Source: a virus (taxonomy: Duplodnaviria > Heunggongvirae > Uroviricota > Caudoviricetes). From it: a DNA stretch of 64,000 bases. The notes beneath the pieces are model-generated. The model ran no database searches and was not told where the DNA came from. It was given only the letters and a program-made list of their open reading frames with translations. Location: the IMG/VR virus record IMGVR_UViG_2541047879_000001; one strand, given 5' to 3'. Positions 32,740 to 44,512 of this stretch are shown in pieces. Position numbers and translations under genes: made by a program. Each line of letters begins with the position of its first letter. Positions within the stretch are counted from its first letter, which is position 1.

Positions 32740-33149
32740 TGCGGCAAGAATGATGCTCTGAGTTCAATTGACCTATAAACATTAACCAAGGCATCTACCA
32801 GGGGGATATCAAATCCCCCCATTCTGAATTTGTTCGTGCAGAATCGGTGAACGTTCTCATCTGAGCGTTAAACGCCAATAATCGTTGATCTACATTGATC
32901 ATTAATACACCTTAATACCATTAGCGTCTTACTCCGTTATGAGAACAAACGCGAACTGACCTGCCCCCAGTATTAGTGACCTTCAGCTACGGTAACTTGT
33001 CCGCTTCGTGCCAGAAGCGGACATCCATAGAGAAATAAGCGATCAGTTCTTAAATTTGTTGTGATTTTTTGATTTTTTTGTATTCGCAAAGGGATTTGTG
33101 TTGGTTGTATAATTACCTAATATTCATACAGTTGAATGGGAGATGTGGG

Positions 33150-34043
33150 ATGAAGTTCTCGTACAGACATGGTTTTGATCCTGAGTATAATAAAAAGCCG
33201 ATACGGGAAGATGCTCCAGAGTGGCTTCGCTCTTTATTTTTTGTAACTGTCCTCGATAATTTTTTGTACATTGATGGTGATAGCCGCATTACGAATGATG
33301 AGAACAAGCCGTTGGGTATTAAGGCTTTGATCGAGCGACTTTGCGCAGAGAATGGTCAAGAAACAGATCATGAGGATTTCGATTCATGGTACTGCTATGA
33401 TGCTTTGAAAGCGCGTTTGCAACATATGCGTTGGTTTCAATTTTATGATGCTGTTGAGATTATCGGAGATCTATTAAGAAAAAGAGATGTAGAAAGAGGC
33501 CATACTTGGGGTAAGAAGGCATTAGAAGACATTACTTTTACATCATATCGTCAGAAATTGAACGAGTTATTCGCATCTCGAAATATTGACTGGAAAATGA
33601 ATTCTGCTGGTAGGTTAGAAACACCACTACCAAATGAATTAGAACAAAAAATCGATGAAACTAACAACTTATTGCAAGACCAGTTTGAACCTGCAAGGAG
33701 GCACTATGTGAAAGCCCGGGCTTTTGCATTAGGTGCGCATAAGGATCCAGAAAATTCCATAAAAGAATCAATAAGTGCAATAGAAAGCATGTGTCGGACT
33801 TATTATCCTTCAGCCTCAACCTTGGGCGATGTATTAAAACTGATGAGAAAAGAAAACACTATCTCACCTATGCTTTTAACGGTGATAGAGAAATTTTACG
33901 CTTATACAAATGCAGAGCCAGCAGTAAGACATGGTAGCAACAAGGTTTCTTCTGTCTTGGAATACGATGCTGAATTCGTGTTGCATATATCAGCAGCATT
34001 TATTAGAACAATAATACAAAGAAAAGCTGTTTTGGATAACTAA
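33150..34043 (+). CDS. Hypothetical protein, possibly Abi-like (helical, contains Rx6H motif RAFALGAH)
   Basis: Start at ATG 33150 (MKFSYRHGFDPEY...) preceded by candidate -10 TATAAT (33108-33113); AT-rich; domain assignment unverified. Confidence 0.5.
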   Translation: MKFSYRHGFDPEYNKKPIREDAPEWLRSLFFVTVLDNFLYIDGDSRITNDENKPLGIKALIERLCAENGQETDHEDFDSWYCYDALKARLQHMRWFQFYDAVEIIGDLLRKRDVERGHTWGKKALEDITFTSYRQKLNELFASRNIDWKMNSAGRLETPLPNELEQKIDETNNLLQDQFEPARRHYVKARAFALGAHKDPENSIKESISAIESMCRTYYPSASTLGDVLKLMRKENTISPMLLTVIEKFYAYTNAEPAVRHGSNKVSSVLEYDAEFVLHISAAFIRTIIQRKAVLDN

Positions 34044-34283
34044 GTCAGACTTACAGCCAACTGACTGTCTCTTATTATTCAAAACATAATAATGTTAGGT
34101 CCGCTTATCGCACATCAGGGACAACCATACTCAAATCTCCCACATTGCAGGAGATTTGAGTGTGAACACGTCACCGTGGAACAAAGACTGTATCATCGGT
34201 CAAAAAAGACCTGGTTATCTAGCAAAAACTTTTAACATACCAACAAACTTAATTTATTTAAATGCTATTAATACAACTAATGT

Positions 34284-35510
34284 TTAAAATATATATTTTA
34301 TATCAACCCAATTTTTAGCATTATTGTCAACTAAAGTAACGCTATGTCCATGACTTGAATTTATAGCATCGATTACTGATTGTGATGGGTGTCCATGTGA
34401 ATGACCATCCGACTGAGCTATAAACAAAACATTATCAAAATCCGCAATTATTTTTTGATTGAAATTTAATTCCGAACCATGATGAGGTAATGTCATCACC
34501 CTTACCGTTTTAATCACTTTTGAATAGAATTCAGCCCATTTATTATAATACAATGATGTATTAAGCTTTGAGTCACCTGTTAATAAAACAGATCTAATTC
34601 CTTTATCTCTATCAAAGAGAAAATGTCGCTCAACCCGACTATTTCTAAAACTAAACCACTCACGAGAAGGCTCATTAACAATTTTCATCTCAGCTTCTTG
34701 ATTATTAATAATCAAGAGATTGATTGATATTACATTATGATCGCCAGCAAGTTTTAAATAACACTCGCGTAATTTCTTTCTTTCCCCCGTGCTAGTTAAT
34801 ATTTTAAGCATTTTTTTCTTACTTAACTCAGTAAAACCATTTTCTATTAACTGCTGACTGAAAATTTCAATTTTCTTACGTGAACGGGGCGGTATCCAAG
34901 AAATAAATGACATTAGTGTATCAGTTTTGTTTTCCCCAATCCTTTTAACCAACCAACGGTTACATTCAACATCTCCTTTGGAGTCAGATATTTTCATTGG
35001 TAAGCTTACAGCGCTATCCTTAATGTTTTCACTATTAAATATAGGAGGGTCAAAATTATCATCAATATCACAGGGGTAAAGCAAAGATATATCTGCCTCA
35101 GGCAACCTTGATTTTATCCATTTGACAGGATCAATGAGAAATTCCATAAAAAGACCTGACGTAGAATTAGAGCATAGCTCCGATGCAATTAAGTAATAGC
35201 TATCATGGATATCTAGGTATGGTAATACAACCTTGCGTATTTTGTTATCTACAAGCTGACATAAATGGTCAAATCCATTTATATGGTCTGAATCCAAATG
35301 AGAGATGTATACCACATCAATATATTTCTCATCAATATTAAAGAGAGATTTAGCCACATCCATCTCCCTACGCAACGCATTTAATTGGTCACTTCCGCAG
35401 TCATACACATAACTGTAAAGCAAACTACCATCCCTTCCCCTCAGTCCGCCTAAACTAAATCCACCCTGGCCAACGGGAAACAATCTTTTATGAAATACTT
35501 CTCCGCTCAT
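34284..35510 (-). CDS. Standalone metallo-beta-lactamase-fold hydrolase (ComEC/Rec2-type MBL domain, putative nuclease)
   Basis: 408 aa; motifs PVGQGG, HLDSDHINGF (HxDxDH-type metal site) and LPHHGS characteristic of the ComEC-type MBL domain; no TM segments; AT-rich. Confidence 0.7.
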   Translation of the reverse strand: MSGEVFHKRLFPVGQGGFSLGGLRGRDGSLLYSYVYDCGSDQLNALRREMDVAKSLFNIDEKYIDVVYISHLDSDHINGFDHLCQLVDNKIRKVVLPYLDIHDSYYLIASELCSNSTSGLFMEFLIDPVKWIKSRLPEADISLLYPCDIDDNFDPPIFNSENIKDSAVSLPMKISDSKGDVECNRWLVKRIGENKTDTLMSFISWIPPRSRKKIEIFSQQLIENGFTELSKKKMLKILTSTGERKKLRECYLKLAGDHNVISINLLIINNQEAEMKIVNEPSREWFSFRNSRVERHFLFDRDKGIRSVLLTGDSKLNTSLYYNKWAEFYSKVIKTVRVMTLPHHGSELNFNQKIIADFDNVLFIAQSDGHSHGHPSQSVIDAINSSHGHSVTLVDNNAKNWVDIKYIF

Positions 35511-36224
35511 ATATCCTTCTTACACCCTAACGTGATCATAAAATTGTCTTAAAGTTAAGTTTAAAGCTAAAAAGTCACAGCTCATTCCAACTCGTGAGCA
35601 ATAGGAATGTATATTCAATCAGTTAGAGGATCAACCCGATTTTCTCTAATGAGATTTCGCAACGCAGTACGAACAGCAGCTACTTCTGCCATCTCATTAA
35701 CAACCACACTGGACTACAATCCCCTAAGTTCTACAGACTGTAACCATATCCTCTTCACAGAAATAATCTGATTAATGCTGAAGGTCATCTTTCTCGACGC
35801 GAATGTATGACATAACAACCTCAGTTAATTATCTTTCGATAGAAAAATACCTTCACAAAAGGTTTAAGCAACCCATCACAAGACAACACGCTAAGCTTGC
35901 CTTGTAAGCGTCCTGCTTAACCGAACAGTTCGCTTTCAGAGGATCTCCGGAGAACAGCTCCGATGCCTTATAAGGCCAATGCTCGCTCCTCGCTCACTGC
36001 GGACCTAAGGTTTGGTCAGCTTGTTCGCACTCTGCCAAAAGCGGGAGTTACTCCCATTCGGTGTTAATCAATGTAGAGCAGATCAATCAACGACAAAGAA
36101 AATGAGAGGCATATCACTACTCATATGAAAATTATTGTAGTAAAGTGAGCCGTAAGTTCATCATTTATAAATCATATAGCATATATGTTATATCAATTTT
36201 AATTTAAATGGCAGAATAATTACC

Positions 36225-36929
36225 ATGGAAAAAATTAAAACTCCTTGTCCATATTGTAAAGGTGAAAAAAATTGCCACATAATAGGCCATAAAAAAAGAG
36301 AATGGAGTGAGGATGATGGGGGCAACTATTTTTGGGCTGAAAGTGAATACAAATTATTAGAGTGTATGGGGTGCGACGGAATATTTACATATATTAAATC
36401 CCGTCACAGTGAAGATTACGACATTGAAAGAGATGAGTCAGGCTATGATTGTATGGTATATAACTATCATATATCAACATATCCCACTCAAGAGCAAGAA
36501 GAGATTAGACCAACTTGGTTTGGTGAGACATTAAACAAAGATCGTCAGCTGTATGTAATAATGAACGAAATGTACATCGCATTTCAAAATAAATCATTCA
36601 TTTTAGCGGCGATTGGACTTAGAACTATTTTTGACAGAACAGTTGAGGTTCTAAATATTCATCCAGGATATACATTAGGCCAGAAGGTTGACATTCTTAA
36701 AGAGGAAGGTTTTATTGGGGAAACAGAAAGGAGCCAACTTAAAATTGTAACCGAAGCTGGCAACTCAGCTGCACACAGGACATGGGCACCGAACGAAACT
36801 GAATTTAAATCGCTTTTGGTAATTATAGAAAATTTTGTAATGCGAACAATACTAAAAAATGAGGATATATTTAAGATTACAGAAAAATTACCTGCGAAAT
36901 ATCCAAGACCTCCCAAAAAGCAAGAATAA
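36225..36929 (+). CDS. Zinc-ribbon / DUF4145-like (HEPN-superfamily-like) protein
   Basis: 234 aa; N-terminal CPYC...CMGC zinc ribbon; C-terminal AAIGLRTIFDRTVE...GNSAAHRTW resembling DUF4145; AT-rich. Confidence 0.6.
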   Translation: MEKIKTPCPYCKGEKNCHIIGHKKREWSEDDGGNYFWAESEYKLLECMGCDGIFTYIKSRHSEDYDIERDESGYDCMVYNYHISTYPTQEQEEIRPTWFGETLNKDRQLYVIMNEMYIAFQNKSFILAAIGLRTIFDRTVEVLNIHPGYTLGQKVDILKEEGFIGETERSQLKIVTEAGNSAAHRTWAPNETEFKSLLVIIENFVMRTILKNEDIFKITEKLPAKYPRPPKKQE

Positions 36930-37367
36930 TGTACGTAAGTGTAAATAGAGCTAAGAGATTATATATTGACTCTGGTTATCTCTATTAGCACATGCTTTTT
37001 GTAATGCCTTAACTGATTATTTAAACTCCTGTCAGCTTTTCGCTCAAAGCGGACTAAAGTGTTGGCTTGTGACTGACTTAGCGCATTTAAGGAAGTGGTG
37101 GTGGTGACGGGGTGTTGTGTCCCATTTCCACAGAATAAATCAGAGAAACTATAGCGGCTGTAATGGCAATCTATGGTCTTGCTATTGCTCTTATGGATCA
37201 CCTTTCTGATTGATTTCATATTGGCGAGGTAACGGGAGTTAAGTAGAATAGCTGCGGGTGCTTGAGGCTGTCTGCCTCGGGCATGAACACCAAAGGCAGA
37301 TAGAGAAAAGCCCCAGTTAACATTACGCGTCCGGCAAGACGCTTAACATTAATCTGAGGCCACATCT

Positions 37368-37616
37368 ATGCTTTGCATACGTAGATTAGCCTCTTACCGA
37401 CCAAAAGGTCAAGGAGAAGCAGGCTATGAAGCAGCAAAAGGCGATGTTAATCACCCTGATCGTCATCTGTTTAACCGTTATAGTGACGGTACTGGTAACG
37501 AGGAAAGACCTCTGCGAGGTACGAATCCGAACCGACCAGACGGAGGTCGCTGTCTTCACAGCTTACGAACTTGGGGAGTAAGAGGACCAGCGGGGAGAAA
37601 TCCCCGCAACCTCTGA
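37368..37616 (+). CDS. mok: mok-like overlapping reading frame of hok locus
   Basis: 82-aa frame starting 58 nt upstream of hok and overlapping it in another frame, as in hok/sok loci. Confidence 0.45.
   Translation: MLCIRRLASYRPKGQGEAGYEAAKGDVNHPDRHLFNRYSDGTGNEERPLRGTNPNRPDGGRCLHSLRTWGVRGPAGRNPRNL
37426..37581 (+). CDS. hok: Hok/Gef-family type I toxin
   Basis: Own translation MKQQKAMLITLIVICLTVIVTVLVTRKDLCEVRIRTDQTEVAVFTAYELGE (51 aa, below track cutoff), near-identical to E. coli Hok proteins; SD AAGGAG upstream; 3' hairpin GCGGGGA-GAAA-TCCCCGC at 37590-37607. Confidence 0.85.
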   Translation: MKQQKAMLITLIVICLTVIVTVLVTRKDLCEVRIRTDQTEVAVFTAYELGE

Positions 37617-39581: not shown

Positions 39582-39902
39582 CGTCAGGAAAGCAGGGGAG
39601 AATGCTGCTAGTTGGGCAACTGGTCTTTCTGCTCCAAATTATAACAGAGACCAGTTATAGTTTCGGTGCTGTGTTTTTTTTACAATATTGTGATAACACA
39701 TTGCTGGCGGGAGTTTTGATATTTCTTGGCAGGGGCTGATGATGCGTTATCCTGATGTCGTCAACTCATATAAAATGAGATGAGAGATCATTGCAGGGTG
39801 GTTTGTAATTCGCTGTTTAGCGGGACAATATGTTGTCTGATACAAGACACCCGACGCCTCAGATTACTATAATAAAGACGAAGCATCCTTTGTATTGACC
39901 AA

Positions 39903-39927
39903 CCGCCTGTTTAGGCGGTTCTTTTTG
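39903..39927 (+). terminator. Intrinsic terminator (candidate tR')
   Basis: CCGCCT-GTTT-AGGCGG followed by TTCTTTTT. Confidence 0.5.
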
Positions 39928-40458
39928 GGCTGGTTTATTGTATGCCAAATGATTATTAAAAAGGTTGTGTTAATAACAAAACCCGAAATAATATGCCTGC
40001 ATATTTTTATCTTGCTTATATTCTGCATATTGTGCATAGCAGGCTCATCCCTGCAATCAAAACTGTATGATGAGTATTTTTTGTTTTCCTTTTTTCCAGT
40101 CATCTGATGATGACCTGCTTCTTTTTAATCCGGATCGACATCAGTTTTTTAAGATAATTCCTGCGAGTTATATGCATAAATACCACAAACTCCGCATTTT
40201 ATGTGGTTGGGAGTTGCCGGGCGCGCAGTGAGTTTGCTAAGAAAACTCCTGCATGGTGAATCCCCCTGTGCGGTGGGGTGATACCATTAACCTTTTCTGT
40301 CGCCGACAGGTATCACGAACATTTTGTTCACCGGGAGGCACCCGGCACCATGCACTTCAATAGATTCTCTCCACATTATGGATATTCTTTCAGAATATCC
40401 CACGCAGACTTTGTGTAAATGTTAACAAATGTGCGTTTTATTTGATCTGATTCGCTGT

Positions 40459-40488
40459 TTGAGCGTCCAAAACAACGGTATATATAAT
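40459..40488 (+). promoter_or_regulatory. Candidate sigma70 promoter of TolA-like moron
   Basis: -35 TTGAGC (40459-40464), 18-bp spacer, -10 TATAAT (40483-40488), ~30 nt before start codon 40518. Confidence 0.45.
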
Positions 40489-40517
40489 CCTTTACTATAT
40501 GACATATGTGAGGAAAA

Positions 40518-40946
40518 ATGGGTTTTCGTAGCGCATCAATTCTTACGTTGATTATTAGTGGGATTATTATCGGGTGCACTGATGCTGTATCGACAAATTA
40601 TCATGACCGTACATCATATTACTCCGATAAAGCAATAGAGACACAGTATGTGAGTTCATCTGAACGTACTTCTGATGTTAGTGAGGATATCCGTCTGTAT
40701 GCCCATCAAATCAAGAGCGCCATCGAAAAACAGTTCGGGGATGCGAGTAAGTATTCAGGAAAAGAGTGTACACTGAGAATGCATATGGCCCCGAATGGCC
40801 TTCTACTGGAGGTTAAAAGAGAAAGTGGAGACCTCGATTTATGTCGTGAAGCGATGAATGCGATAAAGAATGCTGATATACCTGCCCCCCCTTCGCCGGA
40901 AGTATATAAAGTATTTCAAAATGGGGTGCTGGATTTTAAACCCTGA
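40518..40946 (+). CDS. Lipoprotein with TolA C-terminal domain III-like fold
   Basis: 142 aa; signal peptide with lipobox IIGC; C-terminus YAHQIKSAIEKQFGDASKYSGKECTLRMHMAPNGLLLEVKRESGDLDLCREAMNAIKNADIPAPPSPEVYKVFQNGVLDFKP aligns closely with the E. coli TolA C-terminal domain. Confidence 0.7.
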   Translation: MGFRSASILTLIISGIIIGCTDAVSTNYHDRTSYYSDKAIETQYVSSSERTSDVSEDIRLYAHQIKSAIEKQFGDASKYSGKECTLRMHMAPNGLLLEVKRESGDLDLCREAMNAIKNADIPAPPSPEVYKVFQNGVLDFKP

Positions 40947-41096
40947 TATTTATTGTTTTGTAATAAACGGTTTCGGCTTAGGTTTGTTCTGACACAGCTA
41001 CGGCACTGAGCTAAATTTAGCGGATAGTCAGCTCTGAGCCAGTGGCGGACGTAACAACTACTATTGCTGAGATTTTAATGGATTGAGGAGCAAGAA

Positions 41097-41492
41097 GTGG
41101 GATTAAAGAAAATCGTTATGTTGACTTTTTGGGTCGGTTTTGTTGCGGGATGCACACCTTTACACCCTTCAGATTGCCACAAAACTACTGCTACAGGTAG
41201 TTGCAGTTCAGGACGCTGGGATGATCAGGATGAATGGGGGGCGCAAGCGCGGGGAATCAGAGCTGCAATTAATGCCAAACTTGATGAGCCGCATAACTGG
41301 AAAGGGAAAAAATGCAGGTTGCATATGGAATTCTCTCAGGATGGCACGGCGTTAAAAATATCTACCAGTAACGGTGATAAAGCCTATTGCGAAGCGATAA
41401 AGTCCGCAGCTCATAAAGCCAAATTTCCGGCCTTCAACAATCCGGAAGTCTACAGAGATTTTCAGAAATCTGGCTTTGACATGCGAGGTTAG
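41097..41492 (+). CDS. Second TolA domain III-like lipoprotein (divergent paralogue)
   Basis: 131 aa; GTG start with GAGGAG SD; lipobox VAGC; C-terminus KKCRLHMEFSQDGTALKISTSNGDKAYCEAIKSAAHKAKFPAFNNPEVYRDFQKSGFD follows the same pattern. Confidence 0.6.
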   Translation: MGLKKIVMLTFWVGFVAGCTPLHPSDCHKTTATGSCSSGRWDDQDEWGAQARGIRAAINAKLDEPHNWKGKKCRLHMEFSQDGTALKISTSNGDKAYCEAIKSAAHKAKFPAFNNPEVYRDFQKSGFDMRG

Positions 41493-41617
41493 CTCTTCAA
41501 TTACTATATCTCATTCATAGCAAACTGACAGATTTGATGATGTTCTATATACGAAACCTGTGATGTCAAGTCTGAGCTAATACAAATAAACATAATATCA
41601 GAGAAATACATTTTATT

Positions 41618-41641
41618 AGCTCGCTACGGCGAGCTTTTTAT
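41618..41641 (+). terminator. Intrinsic terminator closing the moron, upstream of holin
   Basis: AGCTCGC-TACG-GCGAGCT followed by TTTTTA. Confidence 0.55.
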
Positions 41642-41743
41642 ATTGCATCGTCTCCAGCATATATATCAATTAAGGCTCTGATTGATGTGTCTGAAAGCCT
41701 ACACATAATAACTATGCCATCCGTTCCGTGCGGAGGTGAGGCT

Positions 41744-41959
41744 ATGAAATCCATGGACAAAATTTCAACAGGCATTGCCTACGGCACCTCCGCAGGCAGT
41801 GCTGGCTACTGGTTTTTACAGTTGCTCGATAGAGTAACTCCGTCACAGTGGGCTGCAATCGGTGTGCTGGGTAGTCTGGTATTTGGCCTGCTGACGTACC
41901 TGACAAACCTTTATTTCAAGATTAAAGAAGATAAGCGCAAGGCTGCGAGAGGTGAATAA
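41744..41959 (+). CDS. Class II holin / pinholin (S21-like)
   Basis: 71 aa from [28 protein letters not shown]...; dual-start MKSM motif; two TM segments. Confidence 0.8.
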
Positions 41960-42456
41960 TGCCTCCATCATTACGAAAAGTCGTTGCTGCTGCTATTGGT
42001 GGCGGAGCAATTGCTATAGCATCAGTGTTAATCACTGGCCCAAGTGGTAACGATGGTCTGGAAGGTGTCAGCTACATACCATACAAAGATATTGTTGGTG
42101 TATGGACTGTATGTCACGGGCATACAGGAAAAGACATCATGCTCGGTAAAACGTATACCAAAGCAGAATGCAAAACACTCTTGAATAAAGACCTTGCCAC
42201 GGTCGCCAGACAAATTAACCCGTACATCAAAGTCGATATACCGGAAACAACGCGCGGCGCTCTTTACTCATTCGTTTACAACGTGGGTGCTGGCAATTTC
42301 AGAACATCGACGCTTCTTCGCAAAATAAACCAGGGCGATATCAAAGGCGCATGTGATCAGCTACGTCGCTGGACATATGCTGGCGGTAAGCAATGGAAAG
42401 GTCTCATGACTCGTCGTGAGATTGAGCGTGAAATCTGTTTGTGGGGTCAGCAATGA
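41959..42456 (+). CDS. SAR endolysin (R21-like lysozyme)
   Basis: 165 aa; N-terminal SAR domain [18 protein letters not shown] and catalytic region closely matching phage 21 R. Confidence 0.85.
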
Positions 42457-42917: not shown

Positions 42918-43054
42918 AATCTTAACTACAATATGATTCATTTTGATGATTGTTTCATAAGGAACAGTGAAGTAAGATCTAAGAGGAGTTAAATTTTATA
43001 CAGTATAATCATAATATTGCAGCAAGGTGGTTATAATTGAAAGAATATTTAGAT

Positions 43055-44512
43055 ATGAATACATCTCATGTAAGAGTTGTTACTCATATGTGTGGGTTCC
43101 TGGTTTGGCTCTATAGTCTTTCAATGTTGCCACCAATGGTTGTAGCATTGTTTTATAAAGAAAAAAGCCTGTTCGTTTTCTTTATAACTTTCGTTATATT
43201 TTTTTGCATTGGTGGCGGAGCGTGGTATACAACTAAGAAATCTGGCATTCAATTACGTACCCGTGATGGGTTTATTATAATTGTAATGTTTTGGATTTTG
43301 TTTTCTGTTATTAGTGCATTCCCTTTATGGATTGACTCAGAACTTAATTTAACGTTCATTGATGCTCTGTTTGAAGGGGTTTCTGGAATAACAACAACAG
43401 GAGCAACTGTAATTGATGATGTTAGTTCATTACCTCGGGCATATTTGTACTATCGGTCACAGTTAAATTTTATAGGTGGTTTAGGAGTTATTGTTCTGGC
43501 GGTTGCTGTATTGCCATTATTGGGTATTGGTGGTGCAAAGCTTTATCAGTCAGAAATGCCGGGGCCATTTAAGGATGACAAACTCACTCCCCGCCTGGCC
43601 GATACGTCACGGACACTGTGGATAACTTATTCTTTATTAGGTATTGCTTGTATTGTCTGTTATAGACTTGCAGGAATGCCTTTGTTTGATGCTATTTGTC
43701 ACGGGATTTCCACAGTTTCGCTTGGTGGTTTCTCAACTCATAGCGAGAGTATCGGATATTTTAATAACTATTTGGTTGAGCTGGTGGCTGGTTCTTTTTC
43801 CCTGCTATCGGCTTTCAACTTCACTCTTTGGTATATTGTTATTAGCAGGAAAACGATAAAACCTTTAATCAGAGATATTGAACTTCGTTTCTTTCTGTTA
43901 ATAGCCTTAGGGGTGATCATTGTTACCTCTTTCCAGGTCTGGCATATAGGTATGTATGACTTGCATGGAAGTTTTATTCATTCGTTTTTTCTTGCCAGCT
44001 CCATGCTCACTGATAATGGTTTAGCTACGCAGGATTATGCAAGTTGGCCCACGCACACGATAGTGTTTTTGCTGTTGTCAAGTTTCTTTGGGGGATGTAT
44101 AGGTTCAACTTGTGGTGGAATTAAGTCACTTCGATTTCTTATACTTTTCAAACAAAGCAAACACGAGATAAATCAGCTTTCTCATCCCAGAGCGTTGTTG
44201 AGTGTAAATGTAGGAGGGAAGATAGTTACAGATCGTGTAATGAGGTCTGTATGGAGTTTCTTTTTTCTTTATACTCTCTTCACGGTGTTTTTTATACTGG
44301 TGTTAAATGGTATGGGATATGATTTTCTTACATCATTTGCAACAGTGGCTGCATGTATTAATAATATGGGATTAGGTTTTGGGGCTACTGCATCGTCATT
44401 CGGAGTGCTTAATGACATTGCAAAATGTTTAATGTGCATAGCTATGATTCTTGGTCGCCTTGAAATTTATCCTGTTATTATATTGTTTTCAGGTTTTTTT
44501 TGGCGCTCCTAA
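43055..44512 (+). CDS. trkG: Trk-system potassium uptake protein TrkG
   Basis: 485 aa from MNTSHVRVVTHM...; multi-TM TrkH-family protein matching Rac trkG; AT-rich cargo gene. Confidence 0.85.
   Translation: MNTSHVRVVTHMCGFLVWLYSLSMLPPMVVALFYKEKSLFVFFITFVIFFCIGGGAWYTTKKSGIQLRTRDGFIIIVMFWILFSVISAFPLWIDSELNLTFIDALFEGVSGITTTGATVIDDVSSLPRAYLYYRSQLNFIGGLGVIVLAVAVLPLLGIGGAKLYQSEMPGPFKDDKLTPRLADTSRTLWITYSLLGIACIVCYRLAGMPLFDAICHGISTVSLGGFSTHSESIGYFNNYLVELVAGSFSLLSAFNFTLWYIVISRKTIKPLIRDIELRFFLLIALGVIIVTSFQVWHIGMYDLHGSFIHSFFLASSMLTDNGLATQDYASWPTHTIVFLLLSSFFGGCIGSTCGGIKSLRFLILFKQSKHEINQLSHPRALLSVNVGGKIVTDRVMRSVWSFFFLYTLFTVFFILVLNGMGYDFLTSFATVAACINNMGLGFGATASSFGVLNDIAKCLMCIAMILGRLEIYPVIILFSGFFWRS

Follow-up and report, generated by a model that had tools for sequence, protein, structure and literature searches.

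Two predicted lipoproteins with a complete TolA domain III in the Q-to-holin interval of the Rac prophage, candidate decoys for Tol-dependent colicins and filamentous phages

Why does a prophage of Escherichia coli carry, between its Q-like gene and its holin gene, two small genes whose products resemble the C-terminal tip of the host protein TolA? This question is raised by positions 40459–41641 of a stretch of 64,000 nucleotides (IMG/VR virus record IMGVR_UViG_2541047879_000001; Caudoviricetes), which was analysed as a whole and is referred to here as the window; an identical stretch in E. coli strain M8 shows that it is a full-length Rac prophage located at ttcA. The two genes, designated A and B, had been noticed in an initial annotation made from the letters of the DNA. 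Each of them encodes domain III of TolA (TolA-III) behind a predicted lipoprotein signal peptide, and we propose that A and B are outer-membrane-tethered decoys that give tolerance to Tol-dependent colicins and filamentous phages, a proposal to which we would assign an even chance of being correct.

A and B each carry a bona fide and complete TolA-III fold, and the match is far beyond chance. The Pfam profile PF06519, with a gathering cut-off of 25 bits, is matched by A with 82.6 bits (E = 2.4e-23, profile positions 4–96 of 96) and by B with 54.6 bits (E = 1.3e-14, profile positions 10–92 of 96). When the PDB was searched with phmmer, TolA-III chains were the only matches (5e-28 for A and 5e-9 for B), with gapless alignments that reach the last residue and cover 88 residues of A and 79–80 of B. 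Identity to residues 334–421 of E. coli TolA is 52/88 (59%) for A and 27/88 (31%) for B. In the AlphaFold2 models the TolA-III domains have a predicted local distance difference test score (pLDDT) of approx. 90, and the N-terminal parts a score below 50; with Foldseek, the domain of A superposes on TolA-III of the IF1 g3p complex (2x9a_B) at 0.6 Å with a target-normalised TM-score of 0.96, and that of B on 3qdp at 1.1 Å with a target-normalised TM-score of 0.92. The cysteine pair of the domain is invariant in both lineages in the three family alignments; it corresponds to the disulfide pair of TolA-III, and the bond is predicted for A and B. Tyr130, Phe133 and Asp139 (A numbering) are likewise invariant across the A and B lineages, and in the β3 strand the sequence LDFKP of TolA is kept exactly in A, the equivalent in B being FDMRG. 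The near residue-for-residue alignment with TolA-III claimed by the initial annotation is therefore borne out over 88 gapless positions, and the profile search and the superposition of predicted models that it had proposed as checks both agree with it.

The N-terminal regions are those of lipoproteins, and the two reading frames with lipoboxes IIGC and VAGC were found as the initial annotation had placed them. Gene A starts at an ATG located 8 nt 3' of a GAGGA sequence, and gene B at a GTG located 6 nt 3' of GAGGAG. Both products show a basic n-region, a hydrophobic core and a lipobox of the type [LVI][ASTVI][GAS]C, i.e., MGFRSASILTLIISGIIIG-C in A and MGLKKIVMLTFWVGFVAG-C in B, with the lipobox cysteines at Cys20 of A (codon 40575–40577) and Cys19 of B (codon 41151–41153). 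This cysteine is invariant or nearly so in the family alignments, and it is frequent in remote short relatives. The residue at +2 is Thr in both A and B and Thr, Ala or Gly in their relatives, with no Asp at this position; both proteins are predicted to be lipidated and, from the +2 rule, to undergo Lol-dependent sorting to the outer membrane. RefSeq places the start of gene B at a later ATG, at the cost of the Lys-Lys n-region; a normal signal peptide results from the longer start, which homologues retain. Between the lipobox and TolA-III, the models of A and B show a disordered linker of 20–30 residues.

The linker of gene B (residues 19–45, window 41151–41230) is conserved nearly as well as the domain itself. 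In the B family it follows the pattern C-x-PLHPS-x-C-HKTTA-x-GS-C-SSGRWDDQDEWG, with two extra cysteines and a Trp/acidic motif, and despite this conservation it is predicted to be disordered (pLDDT <50); it may be a loop closed by a disulfide bond or serve as a second epitope for binding. The motif GRWDDQDEWG was considered as a mimic of the TolB box, given a likeness to the Trp/acidic TolB-binding epitope of colicin E9. This idea was dropped because the spacing differs, and it is also disfavoured by the second aromatic residue of the motif, which aligns with the start of helix 1 of TolA; the motif is recorded here only as a conserved one.

In spite of the shared fold, disulfide pair and C-terminal helix-strand unit seen in the E. 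coli TolA-III structures (1s62, 3qdp, 1tol, 2x9a), A and B differ from TolA in the rest of their architecture and in their location. TolA, with 421 residues against 142 and 131, has a transmembrane domain I, responsible for coupling to TolQR, and a long helical domain II; A and B have a lipoprotein signal peptide in place of the former and only the short disordered linker in place of the latter, and therefore cannot couple to the TolQR motor or work as TolA. The NCBIfam TolA equivalogs (models of 387 and 362 positions) are matched only over their last approx. 95 positions. Both proteins are below the cut-off of NF007065 (107.8 for A and 53.7 for B, versus 213), and with TIGR02794 (cut-off 59.45) A passes on the domain alone with 75.6 and B fails with 47.2. 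Both genes are also outside the tol-pal operon.

The two genes had been described as paralogous, which overstates their relationship. A and B are 28–29% identical (25/88 over the domain), and the pair is a composite of two old lineages. A tandem duplication was rejected, given that the 28% identity between A and B makes them as distant as B is from TolA (31%), and it is also contradicted by the occurrence of A alone in other prophages and by plasmids that share gene B alone. Variants of A with 91% and 66% identity are found without B in other lambdoid prophages, and A-type genes are always located in the slot between Q (PF03589 or DUF1133) and the holin gene. In one of these prophages (locus L119) nanS-p, DUF1378, DUF826 and the holin gene come after the A variant, in the order found downstream of stx in Stx phages; in another one (L122) tRNA genes precede the A variant. 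All A-type proteins detected are from E. coli or Shigella, and their genes were found only in prophages. B-type proteins form 370 clusters from Citrobacter, Enterobacter, Klebsiella, Raoultella, Serratia, Leclercia and others; in these Enterobacterales the genes are single, non-syntenic between genera and located among ordinary metabolic genes, not obviously on mobile elements, so that this lineage appears not to be confined to the latter. Gene B is also present with 87–88% identity on approx. 600 E. coli and Shigella plasmids, whose homology to the window is limited to 41067–41495. On IncI-gamma/K/Z plasmids a distance of 67 nt separates the B-type gene (L003, 5995–6426; L126, 6965–7396) from a nikB-type relaxase gene upstream of it on the same strand, and the B-type gene may be co-transcribed with the oriT operon, and on pO157-type plasmids it is found in the psiB-psiA-hok region. 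The ratio of nonsynonymous to synonymous substitution rates (dN/dS) is 0.12–0.35 for the domain of gene A, compared with the 91% and 66% variants, and 0.06–0.19 for gene B, compared with plasmid and chromosomal homologues; these values indicate that both genes are under purifying selection.

Short lipoproteins of this type are not restricted to the two lineages. When 1.84 billion representatives were searched with a profile, 570 matches at E ≤ 1e-3 were obtained; among the best 148 of these, 96 proteins have 170 residues or fewer, and a lipobox is present in at least 61 of the 96, with ordinary signal peptides in others. A C-terminal motif of the FKNAxLDFKP type is kept in many members, and judged by these matches the family of short lipoproteins with a TolA-III domain is a large one. 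A tblastn search with B detected approx. 690 plasmid records with less than 60% identity, mostly from Klebsiella, which include plasmids of 10–12 kb as well as larger IncFII-type plasmids. One example is the 10-kb ColRNAI plasmid NZ_CP031718.1 of Klebsiella pneumoniae (L085, 5905–6638), which encodes a lipoprotein TolA-III of 124 residues with lipobox LTAC (PF06519, 2.4e-24) that shares 39% identity with A in this domain (tblastn). It resembles A and B in its lipobox, short linker, TolA-III and mobile carriage; however, it belongs to a separate lineage, and directly after its gene there is one for a signal-peptide protein that consists of the TonB C-terminal domain alone (PF03544, 8.9e-11). 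The plasmid encodes a cloacin-type bacteriocin, and the TolA-III/TonB pair adjoins the bacteriocin operon. The presence of free tips of both bacteriocin import machines beside a bacteriocin operon is the strongest contextual hint at function. On the Klebsiella IncFII plasmid NZ_CP050361.1 (L086, 6217–7246), a lipoprotein TolA-III of 144 residues with lipobox ITAC is encoded directly after a gene for a thioredoxin-fold (DsbC/TraF-like) periplasmic protein.

According to the decoy proposal, A and B would be anchored by their lipids in the inner leaflet of the outer membrane, each on its flexible linker of approx. 20–30 residues, and would offer the same edge strands, β3 and β2, to which Tol-dependent invaders bind by strand addition, group A colicins through their translocation domains and filamentous phages through the N1 domain of g3p. 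From their position at the outer membrane the decoys would meet the incoming N1 domain or colicin segment ahead of the real TolA tip; the invader would then be captured by a partner unable to transmit force, import would stall and entry would be aborted, and the result would be tolerance of the lysogen or, where B is carried on a plasmid, of the host of that plasmid. The sites involved are known: g3p-N1 and the N-terminus of TolB add a strand to β3 of TolA-III and colicin A adds one to β2, the other edge (PMC7391070), and the proline substitutions D418P and K420P in β3 of TolA abolish binding of ColN-T and g3p-N1 (PMC4339652); the two positions correspond to Asp139 and Lys141 of A. The affinities reported for TolA-III are approx. 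37–43 µM for TolB, 1–3 µM for ColN-T and approx. 12 µM for g3p-N1 (PMC4339652). The invaders bind more tightly than TolB, so that a moderate amount of decoy could block them and yet be a poor competitor for the low-affinity contact between TolA and TolB, and Tol-Pal function would suffer little. With pIII-N1 in the periplasm, cells tolerate colicin A and their uptake of fd drops 10,000-fold (4-log), which was attributed to sequestration of TolA, and both g3p-N1 and full pIII in the periplasm follow the logic proposed here, in which a free copy of one partner titrates import (PMC10424213). Those constructs are engineered and overexpressed, whereas A and B are natural, conserved genes of mobile elements whose products are predicted to be lipid-anchored; by analogy, this sequestration in the opposite direction, N1 titrating TolA, which has been established experimentally, supports the logic of a decoy. 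Levengood-Freyermuth, Click and Webster are said to have found in 1993 that cells exporting TolA-III to the periplasm are colicin-tolerant and leaky.

The genomic context, i.e., the prophage slot, the IncI-complex plasmids, the psiB-psiA-hok region of pO157 and the bacteriocin plasmid, strengthens the decoy reading. Pili encoded by IncI-complex plasmids are the receptors for If1-type filamentous phage, and g3p of If1 uses TolA-III (PDB 2x9a). A broader version of the proposal, which we hold more tentatively and rate at somewhat less than an even chance, is that prophages of Enterobacterales and plasmids of the IncI-complex, F-type and bacteriocin classes share an entry-level immunity made of TolA-III, and sometimes TonB C-terminal, co-receptor decoys against bacteriocins and filamentous phages, of which A and B of Rac would be a set with two specificities.

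The place of the cassette within the prophage bears on when A and B would be made. In strain M8 the gene order is intR, recET, sieB, replication genes, hok, DUF1367, YbcO, DUF1133, A, B, essD, rrrD, rzpD and trkG. The initial annotation had assigned the cassette to the Q-to-holin interval, where Stx phages carry stx, and this assignment stands, with a Q-like DUF1133 gene upstream, the product of which has a weak Phage_antitermQ match, and a P21-type holin gene downstream (Table 1). A block of approx. 40230–41960, comprising an STnc100-family RNA element, A, B and the holin gene, recurs with unrelated flanks in IMG/VR loci; its left boundary falls at 40189, 40230 or 40327, most commonly at 40230, and its right boundary at 41960 in most loci with different flanks. 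A and B were found together in 80 IMG/VR loci, although the scan of viral contigs returned almost only identical copies and is thus informative on boundaries and little on diversity. Phage mEp460 has the same A-B-holin block behind a different Q, and in L122 the same DUF1133 Q-like gene precedes other cargo. The cassette occurs therefore in the patchy manner of a moron, in the same slot with different flanks, and is absent from some related phages; with coverage of at least 80% of the query as the criterion, 450 of 5,426 complete E. coli genomes contain the full cassette region, whereas the Rac prophage of E. coli K-12 lacks it. The GC content of the cassette is 0.39–0.46, versus approx. 0.50 in the flanking phage genes.

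The STnc100-family element coincides with the commonest left boundary of the module. Three copies of this element bracket a solo A gene in L122 (4704–4877, 5599–5803 and 5854–6061), and another copy is found in L001 (4891–5081). The element may be a small RNA, or a repeated linker that enables recombination of accessory genes into the Q-to-holin interval.

Table 1. Coordinates in the window of genes A and B and of the elements around them.
Feature	Position	Strand	Details
Late-promoter-like site AAGACA-18-TATAAT	39844–39873	+	10/12 consensus matches; 3' of Q-like gene; outside cassette
Intrinsic-terminator-like hairpin	39901–39920	+	8 bp stem and T run; 28 nt after the 39844–39873 site
STnc100-family RNA element	40221–40407	+	Rfam RF02076, 86.6 bits versus gathering score 47, E = 5e-18
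Sigma-70 promoter-like site TTGAGC-18-TATAAT	40459–40488	+	10/12 matches, consensus match only; before gene A
Gene A	40518–40946	+	142 aa; signal peptide, linker residues 21–50, TolA-III residues 51–142
Gene B	41097–41492	+	131 aa; GTG start; Cys-containing linker; TolA-III residues 40–131
Intrinsic-terminator-like hairpin	41618–41635	+	7 bp stem and TTTTT; after gene B, upstream of holin gene
P21-type holin gene (essD)	41744–41959	+	PF04971, 2.1e-35; right end of A/B module; lysozyme gene next

The initial annotation had read the cassette as a lysogen-expressed moron with its own promoter, bracketed by two terminators. The sites are indeed present; nevertheless, they are consensus matches only, and such matches are just slightly enriched in the region relative to shuffled sequences (11 promoter-like sites versus 7.2 ± 2.4 expected, and 4 terminator-like sites versus 2.6 ± 1.9 expected). 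The upstream hairpin is directly preceded by a second promoter-like site and for this reason is read as tR'; most likely, judging from this arrangement, the two form the late promoter/tR' pair of the prophage, and the hairpin is not a bracket of the cassette. The holin gene is positioned 3' of the cassette terminator, so that on induction the Q-modified polymerase must transcribe A and B. The cassette thus lies inside the late operon, and expression of both genes is expected in the lytic phase and not necessarily confined to the lysogen; expression in the lysogen is possible if the predicted promoter at 40459 is active.

Several points weigh against the decoy proposal. Every functional step in it, i.e., ligand binding and the protective phenotype, is one that we infer; a search of A and B against PADLOC-DB 2.0 gave no match to a defence family, and in PHROGs both proteins belong to phrog_5772, of "unknown function". 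Strand addition is mostly mediated by the backbone and hence the conservation of β3 is no proof of ligand specificity, and in B this strand (FDMRG) has diverged. A decoy that also captured the N-terminus of TolB would produce a costly leaky tol phenotype. Finally, the single chromosomal B-type genes among metabolic genes make a housekeeping role in the envelope possible, and the location of the cassette inside the late operon does the same for a role in lysis.

The lysis role would make A and B modulators of Tol-Pal that serve the phage: TolA-III expressed late would compete for the N-terminus of TolB, mobilisation of Pal would be switched off, and the outer membrane, weakened by vesiculation and leakiness, would help lysis or release. 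We consider this unlikely, even though the cassette is located between the late-promoter/tR'-like pair (39844–39920) and a holin gene that polymerase reaches only after traversing the cassette and its terminator, and the A-B-holin block moves as one module. It is also in agreement with the use by TolB of the same β3 site as g3p, and with the hypervesiculation of tol mutants (PMC7391070). However, no lysis genes are found near the B-type genes of plasmids and chromosomes, the phage is already equipped with holin, lysozyme and Rz-type genes, and the cassette has promoter-like and terminator-like sites of its own; in addition, the weak affinity of TolA for TolB implies that large amounts of protein would be needed.

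A second explanation is that these proteins are cellular envelope lipoproteins unrelated to invaders, for instance a docking site at the outer membrane for TolB or a different periplasmic partner, by which the envelope would be stabilised in certain conditions; mobile elements would carry them as a fitness factor, in the way that lambda carries bor or lom. The single chromosomal B-type genes that are widespread in Enterobacter, Citrobacter, Leclercia, Klebsiella, Serratia and others, and under strong purifying selection, fit this view, as does the highly conserved linker motif of B with its two extra cysteines, which suggests more than a passive tether. It has, nevertheless, a low probability in our estimation, given that the chromosomal positions are non-syntenic between genera, as is typical of accessory or defence genes, that the association with a bacteriocin plasmid, where a TonB tip domain is also present, points to the import machinery, and that A-type genes are found in prophages only.

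The current annotation of gene A implies yet another explanation. In RefSeq, PGAP describes it as a "tolA" pseudogene, "incomplete ... missing N-terminus" (L004, 20887–21147, corresponding to window approx. 40686–40946), the "tolA" label being due to the pass of A with TIGR02794, and B-type genes are named "TolA". That A and B are non-functional tolA remnants captured by the phage, as this annotation would have it, is highly improbable, since both reading frames are complete with ribosome-binding site, signal peptide and lipobox, the lipobox cysteine is maintained in the aligned family members and a lipobox is frequent in the short proteins among the best representatives (see above), the dN/dS values of A and B are well under 1, identical copies of gene A are present in approx. 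450 genomes of E. coli and on dozens of IMG/VR contigs, and the GC content of approx. 0.43 and the 59% identity of A to TolA speak against a recent fragment of a host gene. The pseudogene label of gene A is wrong, and for the same two reasons, identity and GC content, a recent capture of A from E. coli tolA is unlikely. As a consequence of the pseudogene label and of the later start assigned to B, RefSeq protein sets lack the A protein, and the name TolA conceals the family from protein-based surveys.

The initial annotation knew of no characterised function for such proteins, and full-text searches of the literature agree with this, having returned no functional study of these TolA-III proteins and only two passing mentions, of a "TolA" in a Cronobacter prophage (PMC2833190), and of TolA and "TolB family" genes on a cloacin-like plasmid, noted without a function (PMC10269471). 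A ciprofloxacin-induced "tail fiber protein" of CP-933O linked to TolA (PMC11125564) was set aside as evidence of induction of A and B; this link is probably an annotation artefact, because the mEp460 holin that adjoins the cassette is annotated as "Phage tail fiber protein".

Among other mobile-element products, the nearest parallels to the proposed decoys act at the same step by a different principle, or share the slot and carry a different cargo. As with stx and other morons of the Q-to-holin interval, transcription of A and B from the late promoter is expected on induction; the cargo here is an envelope lipoprotein instead of a toxin, in a cassette with its own promoter-like site. Cor, Llp of T5 and TraT of F are small lipoproteins of mobile elements that block entry by masking a receptor (FhuA, OmpA). 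A and B, likewise small mobile-element lipoproteins acting at the entry step, would imitate the co-receptor instead; no sequence relation to these proteins was found, as Pfam, PHROG and PADLOC gave only TolA/TonB-type matches or none. We know of no description of co-receptor imitation, as opposed to receptor masking, for bacterial mobile elements.

Other accessory genes are found elsewhere in the window. Directly after the lysis genes there is a gene for the TrkG potassium transporter (43037–44512; PF02386, 5e-145) with a very low GC content of 0.32–0.41, which is the known cargo gene of Rac. Upstream of hok, positions 33069–36929 are a variable region of this Rac prophage that encodes an AbiJ_NTD4-like protein (33069–34043), an MBL-fold protein (34284–35510, minus strand) and a DUF4145 protein (36225–36929), and in strain M8 a NACHT-domain protein is encoded at this position; the region looks like a hotspot for defence genes. 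It is followed by a hok/sok type I toxin-antitoxin locus (37256–37581), in which the sok RNA (37256–37431; RF01794, 105 bits) overlaps a 51-residue Hok-type open reading frame (37426–37581).

The TolA-III domain is known and the genes were already annotated; therefore, A and B represent neither a new fold nor a new family. The new aspect would be the use given to this domain, as a natural, mobile and lipid-anchored co-receptor decoy. If the proposal is correct, natural variants of TolA-III would be available for studying how a single small domain serves TolB, g3p and colicins alike, and a common cassette of E. coli prophages would determine tolerance to colicins and resistance to filamentous phages, a role so far unrecognised, with a bearing on the competition between E. 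coli strains in the gut, on the use of colicins and phages as antimicrobials, and on the ecology of plasmid-dependent phages.

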